Shown in pieces: positions 6,490-54,311 of a stretch of DNA of 64,000 nt. Both the position numbers and the translations under genes were made by a program. The notes under the pieces are model-generated. The model worked only from the letters and a program-made list of their open reading frames with translations, searched no databases and had not been told where the DNA came from. Positions within the stretch are counted from its first letter, which is position 1. Each line of letters opens with the position of its first letter. Source of the DNA: a virus; IMG/VR virus record IMGVR_UViG_3300037805_000894. One strand, 5' to 3'.

Positions 6490-8829
6490 GTGGCTATAGA
6501 AGATACTCTCCGTCTAAAGGTAGAACTAGATCAATCAAATCTAGGCTCTGAGTTAGCGAGTATTCGAAGCAATGTAGCCACAGCGATAACGCCATCGGCA
6601 GGTTCATCTCAAGAAGATCCGGGCGGACACCCAACTAATAAAGATAGCCTTTTCTGGGGGTTAGGTATAGCCGCTAAGCAGCTAGCAGGCGACGTGCAAG
6701 GGGCTGTTGCCTATACAGGCGGAATGGTCACCGACTCATTACGCACTGGCGCGCAGCTAACACAAGCGATAGGCTCTTCCATGGGCCCTATGCCAGAAGA
6801 TGGTGCATGGGGGAACATAAAGAGACAAGCAGGGCGCTTGTTCGGCGCGAATTATGCAAGTGGCTCTATGTCTGCGCAGCAAATAGAGTCACAGGATAAT
6901 GCTTATTTTGGGCGTTTATTTTCTGGCGGCTCAGGAAAAATGTTCGCTGCTGATACAGCCAAAGGAGTATTGGATGTCTTACCATGGCTAGGGACAGGTT
7001 TTAATCCGATTGGCTGGGCCATGGCGTCTGGGATTAACAAAGCGACAGATGCTCTAATAGGTCCAGGGCTTGATAGGTTAACGCATATTACACAATTACA
7101 GAAAATGGGTTATTCTGCGCATGAAGCTGAAGGAGCAATGGAGGGAGGTTTTTGGGCTGGTATAGGACAGGGATTAAATAAAAATCTTAATCCTTTTCAC
7201 GATAAAAAGACGTATCTAGCCGAGGCATGGTCAGAAGGTATTAATGTAAACGGAGAAAACTATACTGGAATACGCGCAGCCGCTGCTTTGCTGGATCAAG
7301 ATCAATTAGATAAATCAGTAGCCGCTTTACAAGGAGGTATGCTTGCTATGAATGAGCTGATGACCAGAACGGGTATGGGTATGGGTTCTGCTAGTCAGCT
7401 TGTTAATTCTTTTGCTCCAACTGGTGCCTTTAATGATAGTGCGCAACTAACAGCGCTCCAAGCTATGTCTGCTCTTGGCGGGAAAACTTTCGATGGTCGA
7501 AATACAAAACACGCTAATGCTTGGATGGGCTCAATTGTACAAGCAGCTCAAGAAGGCTTCCAAACTTATGGAGCAAACTTCTCTTCCCAAAGGGCTTTTA
7601 ATACGGCACAAATAGCCTCTTCAACCTCTGCGCTCACTATGGGGTCTTTAGCGGGCGCATATAATGCAGACATGGCAGTAGCTAATTTTAATCAAACTTT
7701 TGGTGGAATGGATCGCTCCGGAGAAGGTTCCTATGCTATGGACAGGGCTGCTCTAGCTAACGTAGTAGGCGCAGGCTCAGCCTTAAGTCAATCTGAGGCC
7801 TTAACTAGAGGAGGCAAGAGAGATTGGATAGCTTTTGAATATGAAAGAAATAAACTAGCGAGTGATCCGGTAGAAGCAGCAATGGCACTTTTGAATACAC
7901 CAGAATTTGCAAGTAAATCTGTGGAAGAGTTAGCTTTTGATTTAGGAGTAAATACAGATGCTGGACGAGCTGCTGTAAGACAAGCTAAAAATATACATCA
8001 TAATAGAAAAGCAGCAGAGAGTGGAGGTCTATTCACTAGAGAAATAGATCTAAGAAGTGAGCTTAAGGCACAAAACCTGTATGATGCGAACGAAGAATAT
8101 ACAGATTGGGGTGAATTTATATTAACAGCAGGATGGGGCGGGCGTCATATTAGGAGCTCGGCAAAACCTTGGGAATTACATGATGGAACAAAAGTAAGCG
8201 ATGCGGTTATAGGACCCACTCAACAACGCTTAAGGGCGGCGCTGAGCGGCAGAGAGGGTTATAAAGATGCCGACAATAACTATGTATCTACTGACAGAGG
8301 CTGGTTTGATCGCTTAGGTGATAATGATTATACCTTTGGGCAATATAATGAAGCTATAGGCGACGCCTATGAGAAAGGTAATATATTTAGGGCGATTAAT
8401 CTTACATCTCAAGCAATCCTTGACCCTTTCGTTGATCTCTTTACACGAGATTCTCTAGCAGAGAATCTAGCAGACGGAGATCTAAAGGCTCCTATTTTAC
8501 AAAAGCTAATCACCCAGTTTGATTATGATATAACAAAGCTAAGCGAAAAGGAGCTTATACAGATGTCAGGAAACATAGGGAAGCATATATCGAGTGGAAG
8601 GGGCGGAGAAGACCAGGAAAAAGCCCTTAAAGCCCTCGCAGAACTAATCAACGATTTTACTGCTCAATCAGGAATAAGCTCAGAAGCTAAAACTAAAATA
8701 GCAACAAATTTTAACATTGGTGGAGCTGCAAGTGACAAATACGCCTCCTTAATGTCAACTATAGGCGATGCTGCTAATGAAATGGCGCGGCTATATAGAG
8801 AGGACGAACTAGCAGGAAATGTACAATAA
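6490..8829 (+). CDS. tape-measure-like protein
   Basis: 779 aa, Ala/Gly/Met-rich, directly after the frameshifted chaperone pair. Confidence 0.65.
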   Translation: MAIEDTLRLKVELDQSNLGSELASIRSNVATAITPSAGSSQEDPGGHPTNKDSLFWGLGIAAKQLAGDVQGAVAYTGGMVTDSLRTGAQLTQAIGSSMGPMPEDGAWGNIKRQAGRLFGANYASGSMSAQQIESQDNAYFGRLFSGGSGKMFAADTAKGVLDVLPWLGTGFNPIGWAMASGINKATDALIGPGLDRLTHITQLQKMGYSAHEAEGAMEGGFWAGIGQGLNKNLNPFHDKKTYLAEAWSEGINVNGENYTGIRAAAALLDQDQLDKSVAALQGGMLAMNELMTRTGMGMGSASQLVNSFAPTGAFNDSAQLTALQAMSALGGKTFDGRNTKHANAWMGSIVQAAQEGFQTYGANFSSQRAFNTAQIASSTSALTMGSLAGAYNADMAVANFNQTFGGMDRSGEGSYAMDRAALANVVGAGSALSQSEALTRGGKRDWIAFEYERNKLASDPVEAAMALLNTPEFASKSVEELAFDLGVNTDAGRAAVRQAKNIHHNRKAAESGGLFTREIDLRSELKAQNLYDANEEYTDWGEFILTAGWGGRHIRSSAKPWELHDGTKVSDAVIGPTQQRLRAALSGREGYKDADNNYVSTDRGWFDRLGDNDYTFGQYNEAIGDAYEKGNIFRAINLTSQAILDPFVDLFTRDSLAENLADGDLKAPILQKLITQFDYDITKLSEKELIQMSGNIGKHISSGRGGEDQEKALKALAELINDFTAQSGISSEAKTKIATNFNIGGAASDKYASLMSTIGDAANEMARLYREDELAGNVQ

Positions 8830-10035: not shown

Positions 10036-12185
10036 AAACACGCAAACTTATCTTTAAGGTGTATATAGAAGGCAAAGAAATTGCTTTCATAGGAGGGAAT
10101 ATGTCAGCACAAGCGGGGGCTCTATCTGCAGCTTCAGTGATAATACCTTTTTCAAGATATGCTACTCAATTGCGCCCAAGAACTATTGTTACTATAACCT
10201 ATGGATACGCAGACGATAAAGACCTTAATAATCAAATAAGAGAATATGTTTTATTTGATGGCGAAATGGTCTCTATGCGTATTGGAGGAAACTCTTCAAG
10301 TAAAACTTGTACTTTAATGTTATCGTCACCTTTATCAGCTTTGAAGCGCTATAGAAAATATGTACAAACAAATAAAAGCGCTCCGATTACCTCTGCAGCG
10401 CAGCTACACTTGGCTCCCGATAATCGAGGAGAAAAACATATAGCCATCTATAGCGTGAAAGCTGCTGAGGTACCTGGCGCTGATTCTCAAAGTAAACGCC
10501 TTCTCGAGGTAATAGGAGGCGACAAACCTTTCCCTGCCTGCTTACACGATGAAATCGCTGAAGGGATTAGAGCTAATAATATAAATAATACACCTACTAC
10601 GGTACAGGTGCATGAACAATTATATGGTTATTTAGATTCTTTTGCTATTATCGATATGCTCGACAGAGACCAAGAATGGGCAGATTTCAGGAAAAGTACT
10701 AATTTCACTACCTTTATTCAGAAGCTCGCTTTTGGCGGAGATGGAACTAGTTCGGCTGATTATTATACTTTTATGGTTTCATTGTATAACAATTTTAATT
10801 TCAACTTGACTGATATAGGAGTACCGCACTTAAGAACAATCGAAGAAACTTCGATGGAAAATTCAGTTCGTTACACCTTAGCGCCTTCTTCCGCGTTCCT
10901 CTCCCCTCCTGCTTGTAATATCCTATTGCCGGATGCTATATTAGACTCTAATATATCTATAAACTATGAACATGAGATAACACGTGCTTCTTTGGTAGCC
11001 CCTAGTGTACACACTAAAGGAGATACGGCCTATTCTGCTTACTTATATCCTGCTCCAGATTCTCTTTTCAATGAATTTGATACCGAAAAAGCTCTAGAGT
11101 TTACAGTAGATTCAACCCAATTAGATAAAGCATATGGTAATAATGAGTGGTTTTTAACTCCAAAAGGTTTTTATCAGGTGCTGCCTCCCTTCTATAGTAT
11201 GCTAGCGACGGATGCATCTTTCGATAAAACAAGGACATACATTTCAAAGTATGCTAATTTATTTTATTTGAATAGAAAGTATCAAGAGCATAGATGTACA
11301 GTATCCACTGTATTTAACCCTTCAGTGGTACCTGGGTTTACTATGGCGGTATTGGATCAAGACCAACCTTATTTTGCTTATGTGGCCTCTGTTTCACATA
11401 GTTTTTCTCCCTCTTCAGCCTCAACTTCTATACAAGGCACACACGCTTTAACACCTCTAGATTATCTTAACCCTGACTTAAGAAGTGCAAACGGTGTTGA
11501 GAAACAGATAAGCCAAAGAGAAATAGGTAAGCAGTATTTATCGCAAGGGTTCGGTCCATCTTTCTTTGACTTCTGCTTCAGCCAAACTATACTTAGCCAG
11601 ACTGCTCAAGAAAAGGGAGATAAAGATTTATCTATCGAACTCCCCTCTCTGATTGATTCTTTGTTAAAAGAACTGGGAGCTGAGAATAGGTTAGAGGAAA
11701 AAATTATATTAGAGAAAAATAAACCAGATATACTTAAAAGATTAAAAGAAGCTTCCGGTGAGAAGACGAACCCAAAAACATCGAAGATAGACGAAGGTAT
11801 TGACAGGTTAACTGGTTTAGAGATCATAATGAAACGAGTGCGAGAGGCAGGCTTATCCCAAGATGCCTTAGTGGAATATTTACGATTAAATGGAGGCAGA
11901 AAGCCTGTATTGGCCGCCAAGAAAAGGGATAATGTAGCTTGGAAAGGCGATAAACATGCTTATACTAGAAGAGGTTATTGGTTTGATGTAACTAGTTCAA
12001 ACCCTGCTTTTGCTTCGCTTTTTATACGGAGAAAAGTTGCAGAAAAATTAGCCGAGGATATTAATAATAGAGGAACTGCTCCTTATCTATCCAAAAGAGT
12101 AAATATTGAAAATTCTTTAGTTTCTTTGGTCTCGGAAGAAATAACACCAAAAACACTAAGTGAAGAGCAAGGTTTAGATAGATGA
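10032..12185 (+). CDS. putative baseplate hub protein
   Basis: KVYIEGKEI, VLFDGEMV, FNPSVVPG, YVASVSHSF pattern and operon position. Confidence 0.5.
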   Translation: MKTRKLIFKVYIEGKEIAFIGGNMSAQAGALSAASVIIPFSRYATQLRPRTIVTITYGYADDKDLNNQIREYVLFDGEMVSMRIGGNSSSKTCTLMLSSPLSALKRYRKYVQTNKSAPITSAAQLHLAPDNRGEKHIAIYSVKAAEVPGADSQSKRLLEVIGGDKPFPACLHDEIAEGIRANNINNTPTTVQVHEQLYGYLDSFAIIDMLDRDQEWADFRKSTNFTTFIQKLAFGGDGTSSADYYTFMVSLYNNFNFNLTDIGVPHLRTIEETSMENSVRYTLAPSSAFLSPPACNILLPDAILDSNISINYEHEITRASLVAPSVHTKGDTAYSAYLYPAPDSLFNEFDTEKALEFTVDSTQLDKAYGNNEWFLTPKGFYQVLPPFYSMLATDASFDKTRTYISKYANLFYLNRKYQEHRCTVSTVFNPSVVPGFTMAVLDQDQPYFAYVASVSHSFSPSSASTSIQGTHALTPLDYLNPDLRSANGVEKQISQREIGKQYLSQGFGPSFFDFCFSQTILSQTAQEKGDKDLSIELPSLIDSLLKELGAENRLEEKIILEKNKPDILKRLKEASGEKTNPKTSKIDEGIDRLTGLEIIMKRVREAGLSQDALVEYLRLNGGRKPVLAAKKRDNVAWKGDKHAYTRRGYWFDVTSSNPAFASLFIRRKVAEKLAEDINNRGTAPYLSKRVNIENSLVSLVSEEITPKTLSEEQGLDR

Positions 12186-12892
12186 CAACAGATATAGAAC
12201 TAATTTCACGCTTTAAAGAACAAGGCGATATTCAAGCAAGAAATGAGCTTGTTAAGAGGTATATGCCTATGATCAAATCACAGATTAATTTAAGATTTGG
12301 CTCTGGTACTATTATCCCGAAAACAGCTATAGAAAGCGAAGGCATAGCTCAAGTTATAAAAGCTATCGATAATTACAACCCTATGGCAGGAGCCGCCTTT
12401 AGCACCCACTTATTTAACTATTTGCGTAAGATGAGTCGTTACGTAAATACATATGGACATACTATCAGACAGAGTGAAGAGGTTTTTGGGCTGGTTAGTA
12501 AATTTAAAGAAGCGCAGAGTAAGCTTAGGAATAAGTTAAACAGAGAGCCGAGCATACCAGAAATGTCAGCTGAGTTAAAAATGTCAGAGCACCAAGTAAA
12601 CAGAATTCTACCTCAAATAAAAGATGTGCAGATAGACATGGGTTTTGATGCTGGCAAACATACCTCCACATTAATAGAAGACTATGTAGACTATACACGT
12701 ACATTTGATATGACACCAAAAGAGATCATTGTGTTTGATGGTTCGACTGGCTTCAAGGGAGCGCAAAAAAAGAAAGCTGGGGAATTAGCTAAAGAATTAA
12801 ATGTATCTCCTGCTCAAATAAGTCATATAAAAAATAAAATAGGGGATAAGCTTTCAAGTGCTTTCGCCGTTGGAGAGATAGCGAGAGACTAG
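12182..12892 (+). CDS. RNA polymerase sigma factor, sigma70 family group 3 (FliA/WhiG/SigB-like)
   Basis: GDIQARNELVKRY, AIDNYNP..GAAFSTH (region 2), LNREPSIPEMSAEL (region 3), ELAKELNVSPAQISHI (region 4 HTH). Confidence 0.85.
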   Translation: MTTDIELISRFKEQGDIQARNELVKRYMPMIKSQINLRFGSGTIIPKTAIESEGIAQVIKAIDNYNPMAGAAFSTHLFNYLRKMSRYVNTYGHTIRQSEEVFGLVSKFKEAQSKLRNKLNREPSIPEMSAELKMSEHQVNRILPQIKDVQIDMGFDAGKHTSTLIEDYVDYTRTFDMTPKEIIVFDGSTGFKGAQKKKAGELAKELNVSPAQISHIKNKIGDKLSSAFAVGEIARD

Positions 12893-19186: not shown

Positions 19187-19242
19187 ATGATATTATGCCA
19201 TGACTTTCTAAGTATTTATGTAATTGCTATAATAAATGTAGA

Positions 19243-28659: not shown

Positions 28660-28857
28660 TTATTTAATATCTTCGTAAGCTTTCAATGCTACGATCTCAG
28701 TGCCGTTATCTCTAACACGGTCTTCGAGTATTTGTAGCGTCACGCGTTGGTTTTCGACCTGAGATGCAATTTTTTCAAGCCGTTTATTCATTACTAGTAG
28801 CTCTGAATCAAACTTGCGTGTGGGGTTAAATAAGTTTTTTATTTTTTCTAGTATCAT
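28660..28857 (-). CDS. small coiled-coil hypothetical protein
   Basis: 65-aa ORF. Confidence 0.5.
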   Translation of the reverse strand: MILEKIKNLFNPTRKFDSELLVMNKRLEKIASQVENQRVTLQILEDRVRDNGTEIVALKAYEDIK

Positions 28858-28863
28858 TTTTAC

Positions 28864-28885
28864 AAAAAGGGGGAGTTCAACCCCC
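28864..28885 (-). terminator. intrinsic terminator after the lysozyme gene
   Basis: Minus strand GGGGG-TTGAACT-CCCCC-TTTTT. Confidence 0.65.
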
Positions 28886-28895
28886 AGGTGAAGAC

Positions 28896-29405
28896 TCAGT
28901 ATAACTGAGCCTTCACCTTCTTCCAGTACTTTTTAGTACTGGTTTTCAACGGCCCCCTTGGGCCGCCATTGTGCGTCCGGGCGATTGTCGCCCAATCACC
29001 CTCCTCCCAGGCCTGGGGACAGTATCGCCCCATGTACGCGGAGATTATCTTCTCCGCATACATCTTGTCCCGGCAGTCTTGGTAGACTCCCGAGCCAACT
29101 TTGGCCACCGCATCTTGCCAATAAGCAAGATGGATCTGGTAAGGTCCTATGGCCTTACCGTCATCCCCATCGGGGGGTGTTAGCGATCCACTCGCCTCCA
29201 CCTCCCATAAGGCCTCCAAGAAGGCCTCATGTGTTACCTGTGTCACCTGTGGTGCCTGGGTGGGCCACGCCACCTGTGTTGCCTGTGTTGGCCCCACTAG
29301 CATGGACACAAGAAAACCTGTGGCTATGCCCAGTGCGTATAAGATGAGGCCAAACCTCAGCTTCTGCCGCTTCAGTGAGCGGAATTTTGGGAAGAATACT
29401 TCCAT
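28896..29405 (-). CDS. invertebrate-type (destabilase-like) lysozyme with N-terminal membrane anchor
   Basis: ALWEVEASG, GKAIGPYQIHLAYWQDA, YMGRY, IARTHNGGPRG, YWKKVK; SD AAGGAGG. Confidence 0.8.
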   Translation of the reverse strand: MEVFFPKFRSLKRQKLRFGLILYALGIATGFLVSMLVGPTQATQVAWPTQAPQVTQVTHEAFLEALWEVEASGSLTPPDGDDGKAIGPYQIHLAYWQDAVAKVGSGVYQDCRDKMYAEKIISAYMGRYCPQAWEEGDWATIARTHNGGPRGPLKTSTKKYWKKVKAQLY

Positions 29406-29455
29406 TTTTTACCTCCTTGGTAAACGTTTACACCAGCGAATTGCTGGATATTTAT

Positions 29456-29484
29456 TTATACCAAAAAAAGAGATCTAAATTTAG
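29456..29484 (-). promoter_or_regulatory. repeated phage promoter, copy 1
   Basis: CTAAA-N17-GGTATAA. Confidence 0.75.
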
Positions 29485-29513
29485 CAAAAAAGCCGAGTCC
29501 AATTAAGGACCCA

Positions 29514-29578
29514 ATTTATAAAAGTAAAAAGATTAATATATTTATAAAAGTAAAAAGATTAATATATTTATAAAAGTA
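29514..29578. repeat. 26-bp tandem repeat, 2.5 copies
   Basis: Unit ATTTATAAAAGTAAAAAGATTAATAT. Confidence 0.9.
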
Positions 29579-29596
29579 GTTTCTTGTTTTAGTCAT
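29516..29596 (-). CDS. 26-aa hydrophobic mini-protein MTKTRNYFYKYINLFTFINILIFLLL
   Basis: SD AAGGAG and TAATG coupling to the upstream mini-gene. Confidence 0.45.
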   Translation of the reverse strand: MTKTRNYFYKYINLFTFINILIFLLL

Positions 29597-29739
29597 TATT
29601 TCTCCTTAGATGACTTTTTAGGGAATAAAAGAAGTTGTTGACCTTCTTTCTTTTTAGTTTTTGATATATCCTCGTTTAACATCTTTGGTAAATACTTTTC
29701 GATAAGAGCACTGATATGTTGGGGGGCGGACTCTTTCAT
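29596..29739 (-). CDS. 47-aa mini-protein with a QLLLF clamp-binding-like motif
   Basis: SD AAAGGAG; MKESAPQHISALIEKYLPKMLNEDISKTKKKEGQQLLLFPKKSSKEK; has its own promoter copy. Confidence 0.65.
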   Translation of the reverse strand: MKESAPQHISALIEKYLPKMLNEDISKTKKKEGQQLLLFPKKSSKEK

Positions 29740-29785
29740 GTTAACTCCTTTGTTAAATGTACGTAAACATTTTGCTTACATTCTT

Positions 29786-29813
29786 TTATGCCTAGTAAAG
29801 CTGTCTTTTTTAG
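29786..29813 (-). promoter_or_regulatory. repeated phage promoter, copy 2
   Basis: CTAAA-N16-GGCATAA. Confidence 0.75.
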
Positions 29814-29814
29814 C

Positions 29815-29973
29815 AAAAAGAAATTTCAATATAATGTGTGTAATTTATCAAAGCGATCAACTTTGTTAAAAGGTTACCTATTTAACTAGGAAGGAGAATA
29901 CCTTAAATTAACAGCCATTACCTTACCAAACTAGTATTTGTAAGTTAATGAAATTTCTACTCATTTCTGAGTA
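29815..29973 (-). ncRNA. putative structured ncRNA A
   Basis: Promoter upstream, 5' hairpin, nested stems closed by AGAAATTTCA/TGAAATTTCT, then a U-run; no credible ORF or SD. Confidence 0.6.
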
Positions 29974-29978
29974 TTAAT

Positions 29979-30006
29979 TTATACCTAGTAAAACTGTATT
30001 TTTTAG
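29979..30006 (-). promoter_or_regulatory. repeated phage promoter, copy 3
   Basis: CTAAA-N16-GGTATAA. Confidence 0.75.
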
Positions 30007-30054
30007 CAAAAAAGAGAGGCCACATAAAATGCAATCTCTCTCAAGGAGCCTCTG

Positions 30055-30417
30055 TTAACGCTTGATGTTAACTACCCCACCTACCTTTGCAAAGGTGTTA
30101 ATAAGCTGTATTTCCAGCTTAGTGCGCTTGCGGCGTTTATACCTTTTATTGGCAGGAATAGGTGGGTTCACCAGCCCTACCGCTTCCGCCATCTTGATAG
30201 ACGTAATGGGAATAGTGTTCCCCTCTGATAAGAGGGTGGCTTCTGTATGAAGCTCCGCATCGGCTAACAAACTCAGCAGCTCCCTGCCTTCAGCAGCCTC
30301 GGCAAGGGTCACCTCGAAGGTACCCTTCTTTAAAGCTTGGTGAATAGCTGTGTAGTGGGAACTACACAACCCTCGTGTCTTGGCTGCTTTACTGCAGCCC
30401 TTAAATTTACATTTCAT
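30055..30417 (-). CDS. hypothetical protein with N-terminal C-x4-C...C-x2-H zinc-binding motif
   Basis: MKCKFKGCSKAAKTRGLCSSHY; basic C-terminus; SD AGGAG. Confidence 0.7.
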   Translation of the reverse strand: MKCKFKGCSKAAKTRGLCSSHYTAIHQALKKGTFEVTLAEAAEGRELLSLLADAELHTEATLLSEGNTIPITSIKMAEAVGLVNPPIPANKRYKRRKRTKLEIQLINTFAKVGGVVNIKR

Positions 30418-30467
30418 GTTGTGTCTCCTAAAAGGAAAAGTATCAGACAGAAGAGCCTGATACTATT

Positions 30468-30495
30468 TTATACCTAGTATATGTATTTTTTTTAA
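30468..30495 (-). promoter_or_regulatory. repeated phage promoter, copy 4
   Basis: TTAAA-N16-GGTATAA. Confidence 0.7.
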
Positions 30496-32321
30496 TGCGT
30501 ATCTGCCCAATTACTGCCTACCTTATACTCACCTGTCATAGGGCAATCTAAGCCTAATATATCAGTAGTATCTTCTATGCATTTCACAGCTATACGTCCT
30601 ACCTCATCGGCAAGATCTTCCCTAGCTTGTATCTGTACTTCATCATGTATATGCCCTACTTGTTGTACCTCTTTAGGTGTCCAGCCTCGTTTGGTGAATT
30701 CGGCGTCCATTAAAACAGTAGCTTGTTTCATGATTACCGCACCAGCTGATTGAAGTAATACATTAAGCGCAGCATGCATAGCTCTAATAGGCAAAGGCCT
30801 ACCATCTAAGCCACGGATATATCCACGACGATTAACAGTAATTTCCACTTCTTTCATAAGCTTCTTTAAGCCTGGTAAAGTTTCAAAGAATTTCTTTTTA
30901 ATCTTTTTACCATCAACAGCAGTACCTCCCATAATACTACCGATCTTGGCGTCACCTGCGCCATAATTAAGAGCATAGATAAAAGTCTTAGCTTGGTCTC
31001 TAGTGTCAAGACCAGCTGCTTTTTGATTAGCTGTATGAATGTCTCCACCCAATACCTCTTTTACATAAGTACCTTGATCCCATTTATACGTATAATGAGC
31101 TAAGCACCTTAACTCCAAGCCAGAGGCATCACAACCTATTAATTTATAACCCTCAGGCACAACAAAGAGCGATCTGCACTCTTTACCATATGGAGCACGT
31201 ATAGCAGGCACTTGACCCATGTTTGGATTTGAATGGCTACATCTTCCAGTAACTGTACCGTTGTGATTAATACGGCCATAAATACGCCCATCTTTTACAG
31301 ACTTAAGCCATGCTTTTGCGCCATCAGCTAACTGCCCTAAACGTTTAGTAATCATTAGGTATTCTCTGAATAAAGCTACTTCAGGATAATCTAAGTCTTT
31401 AAGAGTCTCCTCATCAATCTTAGGCTTACCTGTTGCTGTTTTTTCAGTAGGCTTCCAATTGTATTTCGCCATTAAAACAGCGGCTACTTGATCTCGGCTA
31501 CCTGGATTAAAAGGTGCTGTCTTGGCTTTAAAAGGACCTGGTTTTAAACTACCTCTAATGCTCTTAGGAGCAGAGCCTTTGTTAGTATATCTAGTATCGA
31601 AGAAGCCTTGATCGTCTAACCAATATTCGGGCGTTTTAAGATAAGTTACTATAGGAGGAAAGCTCTCCTCCAAGTTATATTGAATATCCTTTTTCTTTCG
31701 CAATAAAACTTGATGTAGTTCTTGGGCTGCCTCCCAATCGAAATGCCACCCATGGGCCATTTGTTTTTCCAAGACCCTAAAAAAGGCATGCTCTAACTGA
31801 CAAGCTTGTTCCGGTATATCCCTTAGGTGTTCCCAAAGCTTTAGATTAACTATCGTATCCTGTACGCAATACAAACCCATTTCTTCTGAGTAATTAGTCC
31901 AATCACTATTTTTACCAAAGTCACCTTTAGCCTCATCTAAACGATGGCCCCATGCTTCTAAACCGTGTCGTCCCCATAACTTAGAAGGAATACGCCTTTC
32001 CTCTTCGTCCTCATTAAATACATCACTATGCTCTACACGAGCCATAATCAAAGTATCTCTCACAAGACCCTTAGGCCTCCACTCAGGATAAATCTTTTGA
32101 ATAGCTGGTATATCAAAATTAATAATATTATGTCCTACTATAGTATGAGCATTAGCTACGATATCTAAACCTTCTTCGATTCTATCAGGACCGAAGAGCT
32201 CAGATTCGCCATTTTCTAATACCACAGCAATACAATGTACCTTAGTCATTGAGGGTATGAGTCCATCGCTTTCAATATCGAAAACAAGGGTTTTATCTTT
32301 TACATTTTCAAGCGTAATCAT
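30492..32321 (-). CDS. polA: family A DNA polymerase, T7 gp5-like, with 3'-5' exonuclease
   Basis: FDIESDG, GHNIINFD, YCVQD (Exo I-III); DASGLELR, RDQAKTFIYALNYG, HDEVQ (A-C). Likely start is ATG 32321, 6 nt after TATAAT. Confidence 0.95.
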   Translation of the reverse strand: MITLENVKDKTLVFDIESDGLIPSMTKVHCIAVVLENGESELFGPDRIEEGLDIVANAHTIVGHNIINFDIPAIQKIYPEWRPKGLVRDTLIMARVEHSDVFNEDEEERRIPSKLWGRHGLEAWGHRLDEAKGDFGKNSDWTNYSEEMGLYCVQDTIVNLKLWEHLRDIPEQACQLEHAFFRVLEKQMAHGWHFDWEAAQELHQVLLRKKKDIQYNLEESFPPIVTYLKTPEYWLDDQGFFDTRYTNKGSAPKSIRGSLKPGPFKAKTAPFNPGSRDQVAAVLMAKYNWKPTEKTATGKPKIDEETLKDLDYPEVALFREYLMITKRLGQLADGAKAWLKSVKDGRIYGRINHNGTVTGRCSHSNPNMGQVPAIRAPYGKECRSLFVVPEGYKLIGCDASGLELRCLAHYTYKWDQGTYVKEVLGGDIHTANQKAAGLDTRDQAKTFIYALNYGAGDAKIGSIMGGTAVDGKKIKKKFFETLPGLKKLMKEVEITVNRRGYIRGLDGRPLPIRAMHAALNVLLQSAGAVIMKQATVLMDAEFTKRGWTPKEVQQVGHIHDEVQIQAREDLADEVGRIAVKCIEDTTDILGLDCPMTGEYKVGSNWADTH

Positions 32322-32384
32322 TAAAGTATTATACCCACTTAAAGGCAAAAAAATAGAGAGAAGTATTAACCTCTCCCTAGTGAA

Positions 32385-32960
32385 CTAAGCTTCTGCTAGT
32401 TCTTTATCACGTTTAAAATCCTTCTGCAGTTTAAACTCTTTGTATACATCAGGGTCTATAAGTAACCGTCTTCTATTAAAGTATGTCTTAACGGCTTGAT
32501 CGCGGCACTCGCAATATGAGCCGTAGGAAATACCTAGCTCATCCATCAGCCTCTGCATTTCATCATCGTCTAACTCCTCGAAAGCTCCTCGCATTAGCTG
32601 CTTATAAGCGAAGTTAGGATGCATGTTTATTATATTCGCTAATACATTTAAAGCTTCTGTATCGTTTGTCATGAAATTTAAAACCGTCATCATTACTAGC
32701 CCTTCGGCCTCGAAATCTGATTTAATTAAATAGTAGATGTTCTCGCCACCTACTGTTCTATTTTTTTCGCATTTATCAAGTAAATGATTAACGCGTTTTG
32801 TTAATTGTGCTGTTTGCATTTTATTAAAAGAAAAGGGTAAAAGAGCCAGAGGTTTTAAGTCCCTCTGGCAAGACTCTTGATTTTTTTTACTAAAGGAGGT
32901 AAAGTAGGAGAGAGAATCTCCCTCAATTTTAATGAAAAAGCTATCAAGATCTTTCATCAT
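32385..32960 (-). CDS. hypothetical protein
   Basis: 191-aa ORF. Confidence 0.6.
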   Translation of the reverse strand: MMKDLDSFFIKIEGDSLSYFTSFSKKNQESCQRDLKPLALLPFSFNKMQTAQLTKRVNHLLDKCEKNRTVGGENIYYLIKSDFEAEGLVMMTVLNFMTNDTEALNVLANIINMHPNFAYKQLMRGAFEELDDDEMQRLMDELGISYGSYCECRDQAVKTYFNRRRLLIDPDVYKEFKLQKDFKRDKELAEA

Positions 32961-32989
32961 TAAAATAAAAACTACTTTGAGGCGAGGGG

Positions 32990-33136
32990 AAAAAGATTAG
33001 TAGTATGTCCAACAATGCTGAGTACAGCATTAGATTATCAAACGCTATTCATAGGCATTATGTTTAATCTTGTCAGGAATATTAAGCATTGCTGACGTAA
33101 CCACTAATCTTTACAGGCATGTTGCTTGTGCAACCT
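32990..33136 (-). ncRNA. putative structured ncRNA B (four-way junction)
   Basis: Promoter upstream, 5' hairpin, three internal hairpins closed by a 13-bp stem, then a U-run; G-U pairs work only on the minus strand. Confidence 0.65.
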
Positions 33137-33183
33137 TTATCTGATACTTATTTATACCTATAAAAGTACCTATTTTTTAGTGC
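33137..33183. repeat. 47-bp exact direct repeat, copy 1 (contains promoter copy 5)
   Basis: TTATCTGATACTTATTTATACCTATAAAAGTACCTATTTTTTAGTGC, identical to 34027-34073. Confidence 0.95.
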
Positions 33184-33253
33184 ACCTATCTCTTACACTT
33201 ATATAAAGAGCAGCAGCTAATGCTGCTGGTATGCAGATGAGAAAGAAAGGCAT
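33170..33253 (-). CDS. 27-aa hydrophobic mini-protein MPFFLICIPAALAAALYISVRDRCTKK
   Basis: TAATG coupling to 33253..33474. Confidence 0.4.
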   Translation of the reverse strand: MPFFLICIPAALAAALYISVRDRCTKK

Positions 33254-33474
33254 TATTTGCCCGGGCAGTAAATAACGTAACCCATCCCTAGTTGATCAGA
33301 CTCGTAAGGCACTGGGCTGGCGAAATCCGCCACATTTTCTACCTGAATGGCGGGACATTCTTCTCCCATCATACCTCTACCCGAGTAATGGAATACATCG
33401 TATCCCGCACTCATAGCGGCTATAATAAATTTATGTTGCGGGGAAGACAACGTATCTAAACGAACTTCTGTCAT
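33253..33474 (-). CDS. small phage hypothetical protein
   Basis: YSGRGMMGEECPAI..DQLGMGYVIY; SD AGGAG. Confidence 0.75.
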   Translation of the reverse strand: MTEVRLDTLSSPQHKFIIAAMSAGYDVFHYSGRGMMGEECPAIQVENVADFASPVPYESDQLGMGYVIYCPGK

Positions 33475-33479
33475 TTGAT

Positions 33480-33735
33480 TACTCCTATTTAAGGTTAAAG
33501 AAAAAAACAGGCAGATGAATCATCCTGTTTCGTTGGGGTTAGTTATCTTACCCACCTGACCCAACTATCTCCTTGCAGGAGTAGTTTTATTTAGCTTCCC
33601 CCCATAGGGATCTAAATTTACCTTTTACCTTCATCCAGTAATATACATACTTACATATGTTACATATGCACGGTTTCACCTCCTTTCGGAACGCTCTGAG
33701 CTTAAGATCTGTTTATACTCGCTCAGACGAGTTAT
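33480..33735 (-). promoter_or_regulatory. structured 5' leader or ncRNA C with SD-led minigene and anti-SD
   Basis: GGTATAA box at 33741-33747; about six hairpins; AAAGGAGGTGA-N4-GTG CAT ATG TAA. Confidence 0.55.
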
Positions 33736-33768
33736 CTTTTTTATACCTCTAGAGGTATTTAAAAAAAT

Positions 33769-33802
33769 AGAAGCCCAACATATAATGTTGGGCTTCTTTT
33801 TC
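33769..33802. terminator. bidirectional-type intrinsic terminator
   Basis: AGAAGCCCAACAT-ATA-ATGTTGGGCTTCT flanked by A and T runs. Confidence 0.85.
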
Positions 33803-33985
33803 TTAGGCCTTTGAAGGCACACTCTTGATCTTTTTCTCACACCACTTAACCAGACGGCACGTCCCGTTGACGAGGCCCAAGTATGTGAGCACGGTGATGG
33901 CAACGTAGCCACCGAGTTTCGCAGACTCCTTAATTGAATCCACACGACGAAGAGTAGTAGCAGTAGTAGTAGCAGTAGTATCCAT
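33803..33985 (-). CDS. 60-aa membrane mini-protein
   Basis: SD AAGGAGGT; hydrophobic GGYVAITVLTYLGLV; promoter upstream and terminator downstream. Confidence 0.75.
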   Translation of the reverse strand: MDTTATTTATTLRRVDSIKESAKLGGYVAITVLTYLGLVNGTCRLVKWCEKKIKSVPSKA

Positions 33986-34026
33986 TTTTTGTACCTCCTT
34001 ATAAGTACAAGTGTTGTCAGATGAAA

Positions 34027-34073
34027 TTATCTGATACTTATTTATACCTATAAAAGTACCTATTTTTTAGTGC
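34027..34073. repeat. 47-bp exact direct repeat, copy 2 (contains promoter copy 6)
   Basis: Identical to 33137-33183, 890 bp apart. Confidence 0.95.
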
Positions 34074-54274: not shown

Positions 54275-54302
54275 TAAAAAGGGGGTATACGTTTATACCC
54301 CC
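54275..54302 (-). terminator. intrinsic terminator after the GHKL-nuclease gene
   Basis: GGGGGTATA-loop-TATACCCCC with a minus-strand T-run. Confidence 0.85.
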
Positions 54303-54311
54303 TAGGTAGTC

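Follow-up and report, generated by a model that had tools for sequence, protein, structure and literature searches.

A densely promotered island in an uncultured marine phage sets genes and RNA elements on a shared promoter-hairpin plan

Introduction

In the host-takeover module of the Bacillus phage SPO1 and in phage 'morons', closely spaced strong promoters, Shine-Dalgarno (SD) sites and terminators drive small genes. T4-type phages carry promoter-early stem-loop (PeSL) cassettes, composite units of promoter and stem-loop arranged around open reading frames (ORFs) classed as ORFans (Arbiol et al. 2010, PMC2839356; Comeau et al. 2014, PMC4122927). Pistol self-cleaving ribozymes are likewise known from the vicinity of phage genes, their role there being unknown (PMC4604425, PMC6765202). 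Here we analyse a locus that can be compared with all of these: a minus-strand island of ~5.4 kb (28660-34073) in IMG/VR virus record IMGVR_UViG_3300037805_000894, of which the 64,000-nucleotide (nt) stretch studied here is called the window throughout. The island is flanked by two giant plus-strand genes (3135 and 5148 amino acids, aa) and holds eight predicted single-gene transcription units, A to H, on one plan of promoter, 5' hairpin and terminator. We consider it probable that this part of a 155-kb marine phage is hyperplastic and dense in promoters, with eight transcription units that are built on a shared module and have their payloads exchanged.

The source is an uncultured marine phage. 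Contigs as long as 155-158 kb carry the proteins of the window, as do ~24 contigs that are nearly identical and come from several samples. Relatives were taken from a large protein collection and comprise four lineages that share one gene order: giant gene, variable small genes, polymerase, lysozyme, giant gene. Three were found by polymerase search, their polymerases being 73% (L052), 60% (L053) and 54% (L054) identical to that of the window; the fourth (L091/L092) was found by lysozyme search. Three further lysozyme-bearing contigs proved to be bacterial and were rejected as relatives. L040, a 1.2-kb contig that joins phage segment 33663-32903 to a bacterial-looking SIS-domain gene (L040 1-327, 1089-1227), is most likely an assembly chimera.

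Results

A composite promoter motif recurs in the island and in four related lineages

The original prediction, made from the DNA letters of the window, described an array of cassettes opened by six minus-strand copies of a composite motif, and we recovered all six GGYATAA copies, at 29456, 29786, 29979, 30468, 33152 and 34042. The GGYATAA core by itself is not enriched in the window (25 copies vs 23.7 expected), whereas the composite TAAA-N16/17-GGYATAA yielded 7 matches against 0.42 ± 0.73 expected, with seven or more in 0 of 100 shuffles. Occurrence at the background frequency of AT-rich DNA is seen for the core by itself and not for the composite. The core favours intergenic DNA, which makes up ~4% of the window and holds 10 of the 25 sites (Fisher p = 3e-8). 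Scored with a weight matrix derived from the six sites, the next best site of the window reached 13 bits; the 43-52 bits scored by the six themselves are circular, because these sites built the matrix. Two of the promoters belong to identical copies of a 47-bp promoter-leader repeat, 890 bp apart. Beyond the six units, we identified two more, one with a promoter box at 33741 in front of a Pistol ribozyme and one with a leaderless box at 32329 before the DNA polymerase. The former promoter is less certain than the six, since its -35 match is poor. Elsewhere in the window, at 54280-54305, a GGTATAA box falls within a G/C-clamped palindrome with a T-run behind it, and we read it as a terminator hairpin and not as a promoter.

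All four related lineages use the promoter motif of the window. In IMG/VR and the JGI metagenomes, where the best polymerase identity was 44%, the motif was absent from the nearest matches. An exact-pattern search with the promoter core returned 30 genome matches, equal to chance expectation, and 6 viral matches in unrelated contexts.

The promoters belong to a grammar shared by most genes of the phage

Aligned on GGYATAA, 23 leader-bearing promoters from five lineages gave the consensus TTAAAA, a 17-bp spacer and GG-TATAAA, followed by a conserved initial transcribed sequence, A..A.TATCA. Sigma-70-family promoters are defined by -35 and -10 hexamers with a spacer of 17 ± 1 bp, and TTAAAA / 17 / TATAAA preceded by GG has this build; a generic TTGACA/TATAAT scan does not pick these sites. 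The -35/-10 geometry led us to reject promoters of the T7-type single-subunit polymerases.

A second promoter class comprises 14 leaderless units, whose start codon lies 5-8 nt past the hexamer. For 8 of the 14, the A of the ATG stands exactly 6 nt past GGYATAA, where the leader-bearing units have the conserved A of their ATCAG. As the start codon of many other phage genes falls on exactly this position, GGYATAA is likely the -10 element, with the start site ~6 nt downstream. Most other window genes, structural ones included, start 5-9 nt past a TATAAT-like box and have no SD site. The -10 box is therefore the phage's general promoter, and the island stands out by its additional leader, hairpin and strong SD site. 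Boxes of the leaderless type were noted at window positions 19193, 32329, 51211, 56616 and 57045, and also upstream of 5653, 6490, 19243, 34133, 51159 and 57075; the giant genes are among those that they precede. Leaderless mRNAs seem to account for much of the gene expression in this phage lineage, a habit that may be a clue to its host.

The phage also has candidate sigma factors. A sigma-70-family protein is encoded in the structural operon of the window (12182-12892; Sigma70_r3, nearest to SigB/F/G and FliA), and a FliA/WhiG-like sigma gene lies inside the island of L053 (991-1569), there downstream of a Pistol ribozyme, and of L091 (562-1197). A sigma factor of the phage, perhaps with a phage polymerase as its partner, could accordingly read the promoters, in which case the island would be a middle or late regulon of sigma-28-like geometry (TAAA-N15-8-mer) and not a set of host-sigma early units. 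The spacing is compatible with TAAA-N15-nGGTATAA, and lysozyme and polymerase would be odd cargo for immediate-early units. This account deserves to be taken seriously, but we lean against it: in comparison with the sigma-28 (FliA) promoter TAAA-N15-GCCGATAA the spacing fits, yet the -10 element shares ATAA only; a housekeeping -35/17/-10 promoter fits the geometry equally well; all sigma-family matches are far below the family cut-offs; and the TATAAT-like box precedes structural genes as well. Whichever factor is involved, it alters who reads the promoters and not the architecture of the cassettes.

Hairpins lie at predicted transcript 5' ends and terminator-like sites close most units

The original prediction placed a small hairpin after each promoter. 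As a class, these hairpins are real: counted from the predicted start, the first 28 nt have a mean folding energy of -6.6 kcal/mol, compared to -1.7 kcal/mol in GC-matched windows (p = 7e-6), and adding 11 promoters of the relatives gave p = 3e-10. A plain search for stems of at least 5 bp is unselective, as 59% of random windows have one. Stems start 1-3 nt from the predicted RNA 5' end in most units, and across cassettes and lineages the 3' arms change in step with the 5' arms. At the other end of the units, we counted 25 terminator-like sites in place of the 4.6 ± 2.7 found in shuffles, a five-fold excess. Like intrinsic terminators, they have a GC-containing stem with a T-run after it, and they close most units, in line with what had been predicted; the terminator of unit E was identified only by eye. 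The modular build proposed for the array, of promoter, 5' hairpin, payload and terminator, is supported. Six or seven of the units appear to share the full module, that is, a sigma-70-family promoter, the conserved initial transcribed sequence, the hairpin, usually a strong SD site, the payload and an intrinsic terminator.

The leader of E. coli ompA is a 5'-terminal stem-loop that stabilises its mRNA, and 5' stem-loops shield RNA from RNase E or RNase J. On this basis, the 5'-terminal hairpin of the cassettes would protect the transcript against 5'-end-dependent decay. A competing view is that the hairpins serve mainly as attenuators, or act at the DNA level as protein-binding or recombination elements, as has been proposed for the stem-loops of PeSL cassettes, which terminate transcription (PMC2839356). 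The hairpin of unit E, which scores terminator-like and is followed by a U-rich tract, would fit attenuation, and the 33741 box lies inside a palindrome. Against this view, a U-tract is present at only one of seven hairpins, and separate canonical terminators already close each unit. Furthermore, since the stems vary in sequence with matched 3' arms and the loops vary from 4 to 10 nt, a sequence-specific protein site is disfavoured. We judge attenuation or a DNA-level role improbable as the main function of the hairpins and prefer stabilisation of the RNA 5' end. The N4-type hairpin promoter, with a conserved short hairpin and a 3-nt loop upstream of the start, was rejected as a model, because the hairpins of the cassettes lie downstream of the -10 element and have variable loops. 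The palindrome around the -10 box of unit B (33735-33755) is perfect over 16 bp and might be an operator; a similar near-palindrome is found at promoter 3622 of L052.

Unit F holds a conserved, putative small RNA

The claim that RNAs occupy cassettes just as proteins do is borne out by the Pistol ribozyme of unit B and by the conserved, covarying RNA of unit F, which has homologs in two relatives. As predicted from its sequence, the small RNA of unit F would be closed by a 10-bp stem that continues into a U-tract, and it would have one hairpin at its 5' end and an internal one with the conserved loop UACUAGUU. The similarity is z = 3.7 between window and L053 and z = 5.5 between L053 and L091, compensatory changes affect 16 of 31 consensus pairs, and a closing stem of 10-11 bp sits at the same place in each lineage. 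No match to this RNA was found in Rfam. Its core, used as a pattern in IMG/VR, gave >116 matches, none with a GGYATAA box in a convincing context. According to these comparisons, unit F is well supported as a conserved, covarying small RNA that constitutes a new motif.

Of the two ORF-free structured RNAs originally proposed, only that at 29979 stands. The ORF-free stretch at 33152 is probably the 325-nt leader of the 144-aa gene of unit C and not a standalone RNA: in the L054 homolog of this gene, an ATG of its own directly precedes the conserved block and corresponds to the window ATG at 32819. The leader contains a 13-bp long-range stem (32992-33112; p = 0.003). Homology of the leader to L053 along 315 nt was considered and rejected, the similarity not being significant, and an analysis with MAFFT and RNAalifold was uninformative, as the long-range arms were misaligned.

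Two relatives have an ORF-free RNA of 350-510 nt between promoter and terminator just before the polymerase (L053 4211-4560, L091 6422-6935). These pre-polymerase RNAs are homologous to each other (z = 8.5; fold z = -3.5) and have a C-rich tract and a conserved hairpin block in common; neither matched Rfam.

It could be argued that the stretches without ORFs have no function in themselves and are untranslated regions or what is left of decayed genes. For unit C this would agree with its reading as a leader and with its lack of significant similarity to the relatives; in addition, the equivalent stretch of L091 opens with a 9-codon remnant resembling the upstream ATG region of the window, and the L053 cassette at 7830 is unstructured (z = -0.04). 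As a general explanation we find it doubtful, given that unit F retains its conserved block and compensated helices across three lineages, although their polymerases are just ~60% identical, and that L053 and L091 share their long pre-polymerase RNA.

A Pistol ribozyme takes the hairpin slot of unit B

In unit B, the position of the 5' hairpin is occupied by a Pistol ribozyme, whose P1 begins 2-3 nt past the predicted start and whose GU cleavage junction lies near 33678-33679. A second Pistol, in L053, scores 35.3 bits against a gathering score of 34.5. The two differ in the sequences of P1, pseudoknot and P3, with the pairing compensated, and the pseudoknot between the P1 loop and the P2-P3 junction comprises 7 complementary bases in the window and 6 in L053. 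P3 and the 2-nt GU junction are present. P2 of the window copy consists of two Watson-Crick pairs plus A.A and G.A; P2 being weak, cleavage of the window Pistol is not assured. A population single-nucleotide polymorphism, 33674 A>C in the RNA sense (L041), would turn the outer G.A of P2 into G-C, but the contig has low coverage and the change may be a sequencing error.

If active, the ribozyme would cut itself off and leave a leader with a 5'-hydroxyl end, running through the terminator-like hairpin into the 73-aa gene. The layout in L053 is parallel, with Pistol, leader, terminator-like hairpin and a gene, there for a FliA-like sigma factor. The RNA downstream of Pistol has no similarity between window and L053 and no strong fold signal in either (z = -1.4 and -1.7). 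Within the leader, at 33520-33575, an SD-like site and a UUG open a frame of 14 codons, whose stop lies in the 5' arm of the terminator-like hairpin; the frame is possibly a translation-coupled read-through device.

Payloads differ in kind and turn over between lineages

The payloads would fall into three classes: core genes (polymerase, lysozyme), GC-rich ORFans and RNAs. The features of all units are compiled in Table 1. Comparing cassette content across related phage contigs, we found that payloads differ between lineages. Homologs in the relatives exist only for the polymerase, the lysozyme, the flanking giant genes and the 144-aa ORF; the small payloads are not shared, and the 47-aa ORF of unit G had no significant match to a 69-aa ORF of L091. 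Four payloads have 46-55% GC, compared to 39.5% in the backbone, and by composition the GC-rich ORFan payloads look acquired.

The lysozyme named in the original prediction was confirmed and assigned to the Destabilase (invertebrate i-type) family. Its GC content (55%, with 0.64 at third codon positions, GC3) is foreign to the phage, and its relatives include bacterial genes, some labelled Planctomycetota; therefore, the lysozyme looks horizontally acquired. For the proposed zinc-binding protein, the 120-aa ORF is present, but the zinc-finger match is weak and under the cut-off. The 26-aa peptide is doubtful as a payload, because it sits inside a 26-bp tandem repeat that is present in varying copy number within the population. 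This repeat, in the 3' region of unit G, is perfect at 29514-29578, and contig L047 has one copy fewer. Apart from polymerase and lysozyme, no payload protein matched anything in Pfam, PHROGs, PADLOC or the Atlas, whose scores were uninformative.

The conserved module of 45-50 bp would offer homology for recombination and may therefore let payloads swap between lineages, as with PeSL cassettes. One variant contig, L043, was compared against window 33137-33183 and 33978-34073. At 572-964 it carries the Pistol, the 73-aa gene, the 47-bp promoter repeat and the unit A leader (with a 1-nt deletion), followed by a different ORF, for an 89-aa single-pass membrane protein.

Outside the island, the genes of the window include those for a helicase, a ribonucleotide reductase, a baseplate wedge protein and a dUTPase, besides the sigma-70-family protein and the family A DNA polymerase mentioned above.

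Table 1. Transcription units of the island and their parts (window coordinates)
Unit	Feature	Position	Strand	Remarks
A	Promoter	34042..34073	-	copy of 47-bp repeat (34027-34073); predicted start ~34035
A	5' hairpin	34017..34034	-	6-bp stem; near-identical hairpin after L053 promoter (6699)
A	Payload, 60-aa ORF	33803..33985	-	one hydrophobic segment; strong SD; GC 49%; no family
A	Intrinsic terminator	33769..33797	-	13-bp stem and T-run
B	-10 box GGTATAA	33741..33747	-	within 16-bp palindrome; poor -35 match
B	Pistol self-cleaving ribozyme (RF02679)	33674..33732	-	Rfam, 60.2 bits (gathering score 34.5)
B	Leader after ribozyme, ~170 nt	33501..33673	-	ends in terminator-like hairpin and T-run (33501-33530) just before next SD
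B	73-aa ORF	33253..33474	-	without own promoter, reached only through 33501-33530 hairpin; no family
C	Promoter	33152..33183	-	second copy of 47-bp repeat (33137-33183); predicted start ~33145
C	Structured leader, ~325 nt	32820..33145	-	5' hairpin 33121-33134; C-rich tract; terminator-like hairpin 32845-32869
C	Payload, 144-aa ORF	32385..32819	-	45% identical homolog in L054; 191-aa reading from 32960 less likely
D	-10 box GGTATAAT	32328..32335	-	6 nt before polymerase ATG, leaderless; same layout in L052, L053, L091
D	Payload, DNA polymerase family A	30492..32321	-	PF00476, E = 5.5e-53
E	Promoter	30468..30494	-	
E	5' hairpin	30439..30464	-	9-10 bp, then U-rich tract; sole attenuator-like hairpin
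E	Payload, 120-aa protein	30055..30417	-	N-terminal Cys/His zinc-finger-like motif (weak, below cut-off); GC 48%
F	Promoter	29979..30005	-	
F	Payload, ORF-free small RNA, ~158 nt	29815..29972	-	homologs L053 7647-7806, L091 9434-9625
G	Promoter	29786..29812	-	
G	Payload, 47-aa ORF	29596..29739	-	SD present; no family
G	Terminator and 26-bp tandem repeat (2.5 copies)	29493..29578	-	holds the '26-aa ORF'
H	Promoter	29456..29483	-	
H	5' hairpin	29433..29447	-	
H	Payload, Destabilase-type (i-type) lysozyme	28896..29405	-	N-terminal hydrophobic segment; GC 55%
H	Terminator	28869..28885	-	
	65-aa ORF past unit H terminator	28660..28857	-	without own promoter or SD; no family

Discussion

We read the island as a set of promoter-leader cassettes whose payloads are exchanged between lineages. 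Several points weigh against this reading or parts of it. The P2 helix of the window Pistol has only two Watson-Crick pairs, and with the poor -35 match at 33741 the ribozyme might be reached by read-through instead. The phage encodes its own sigma factor, and the promoters may be read by a polymerase other than the host's. The similarity of the unit C leader to the relatives is not significant once the first 12 nt are excluded (z = 1.3), and the tests of the long-range stem of unit F are modest (p = 0.02-0.08 per lineage). With three to five lineages only, covariation rests on few sequences. Finally, the arrangement of L043 might be an artefact of assembly across the 47-bp repeat.

The original prediction went further and proposed a host-takeover or anti-defence array. 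RNA-based counter-defence by phages is known, and the stand-alone conserved RNA of unit F, with its exposed conserved loop, could be imagined in such a role. The small ORFan payloads combine strong translation signals, foreign-looking composition and turnover between lineages, as accessory or counter-defence genes often do. A dedicated array in which RNAs and mini-proteins act on host targets is nevertheless unlikely in our view. Two units hold core functions, DNA polymerase and lysozyme, no match of any payload to a takeover, defence or counter-defence family was found (the Atlas scores again being uninformative), and the promoter type is in use across the window; for these reasons the proposed role is unsupported. 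A bolder variant concerns the RNAs. The promoter-leader modules might shuffle RNA genes as well as ORFans. On that view the unit F RNA, whose palindromic loop is conserved and exposed, the RNAs preceding the polymerase in L053 and L091, and the RNA that Pistol sets free would all act in trans on host or defence targets, and the ribozyme would deliberately give one of them a 5'-hydroxyl end. We rate this as speculative and improbable.

What the cassettes add is an example of PeSL-like design in a phage that is not of the T4 type, some of the payloads being RNA genes. They also provide a promoter grammar for an uncultured 155-kb marine phage lineage, in which most genes are leaderless and the island genes have a 5' hairpin and an SD site, and the unit F RNA contributes one well-supported new small RNA motif. 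As the Pistol stands in a well-bounded unit, with the same layout in a relative, the role of phage Pistols becomes testable in a simple construct.

Comparison with known systems

To call the island an undescribed system, as the original prediction did, is too strong, since PeSL cassettes have been described for T4-type phages (PMC2839356, PMC4122927) and Pistol ribozymes are known from phages (PMC4604425). The design extends a known phage plan, and no new kind of system is required. Integron cassettes were rejected as a model; each unit has its own promoter, and neither an integrase nor attC-like sites were seen.

Like the SPO1 takeover module and the morons, the units bring or are given their own expression signals. 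Unlike them, the island includes polymerase and lysozyme, and the comparison is one of gene layout only. With stabilisers of the ompA type, the cassettes share a hairpin a few nt from the transcript 5' end, whereas here the hairpin is a genome-wide design feature tied to the conserved initial transcribed sequence, and its function would correspond by analogy.

The Pistol of unit B resembles its class (RF02679; Harris et al. 2015, PMC4604425) in P1, P3, pseudoknot, conserved nucleotides and the 2-nt GU junction, with P2 only partly paired, and its association with a phage is usual for the class. It differs from the usual Pistol in opening a promoter-driven unit at the extreme 5' end, where the sister units have a plain hairpin, and in its unusually weak P2; it is a member by sequence, with cleavage predicted.

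The closest counterparts are the PeSL cassettes. In both, a repeated, conserved intergenic motif combines a sigma-70-like promoter with a stem-loop: an AT-rich upstream part, sigma-70-like -35 and -10 elements, the stem-loop and an SD site stand beside small ORFans. These variable ORFans lie in a plastic region between conserved genes, as seen here from the synteny with L052, L053, L054 and L091 and from the payload GC. Terminators insulate each unit, payloads differ between relatives, and one PeSL subclass has its stem-loop downstream of the -10 element, as do the cassettes of the island. For the recombination and mini-circles of PeSL cassettes, the variant contig L043 is the sole hint. In contrast to PeSL cassettes, the stem-loop always stands in the transcribed leader at the RNA 5' end, separate terminators are present in addition, and some payloads are RNAs. 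The phage itself is not T4-like, having giant genes and a family A polymerase instead of being a T4-type myovirus. Because of this polymerase, and because its nearest known phage relatives are podovirus-like, we place the cassettes beside the PeSLs as units that work like them, and not as members of that group.

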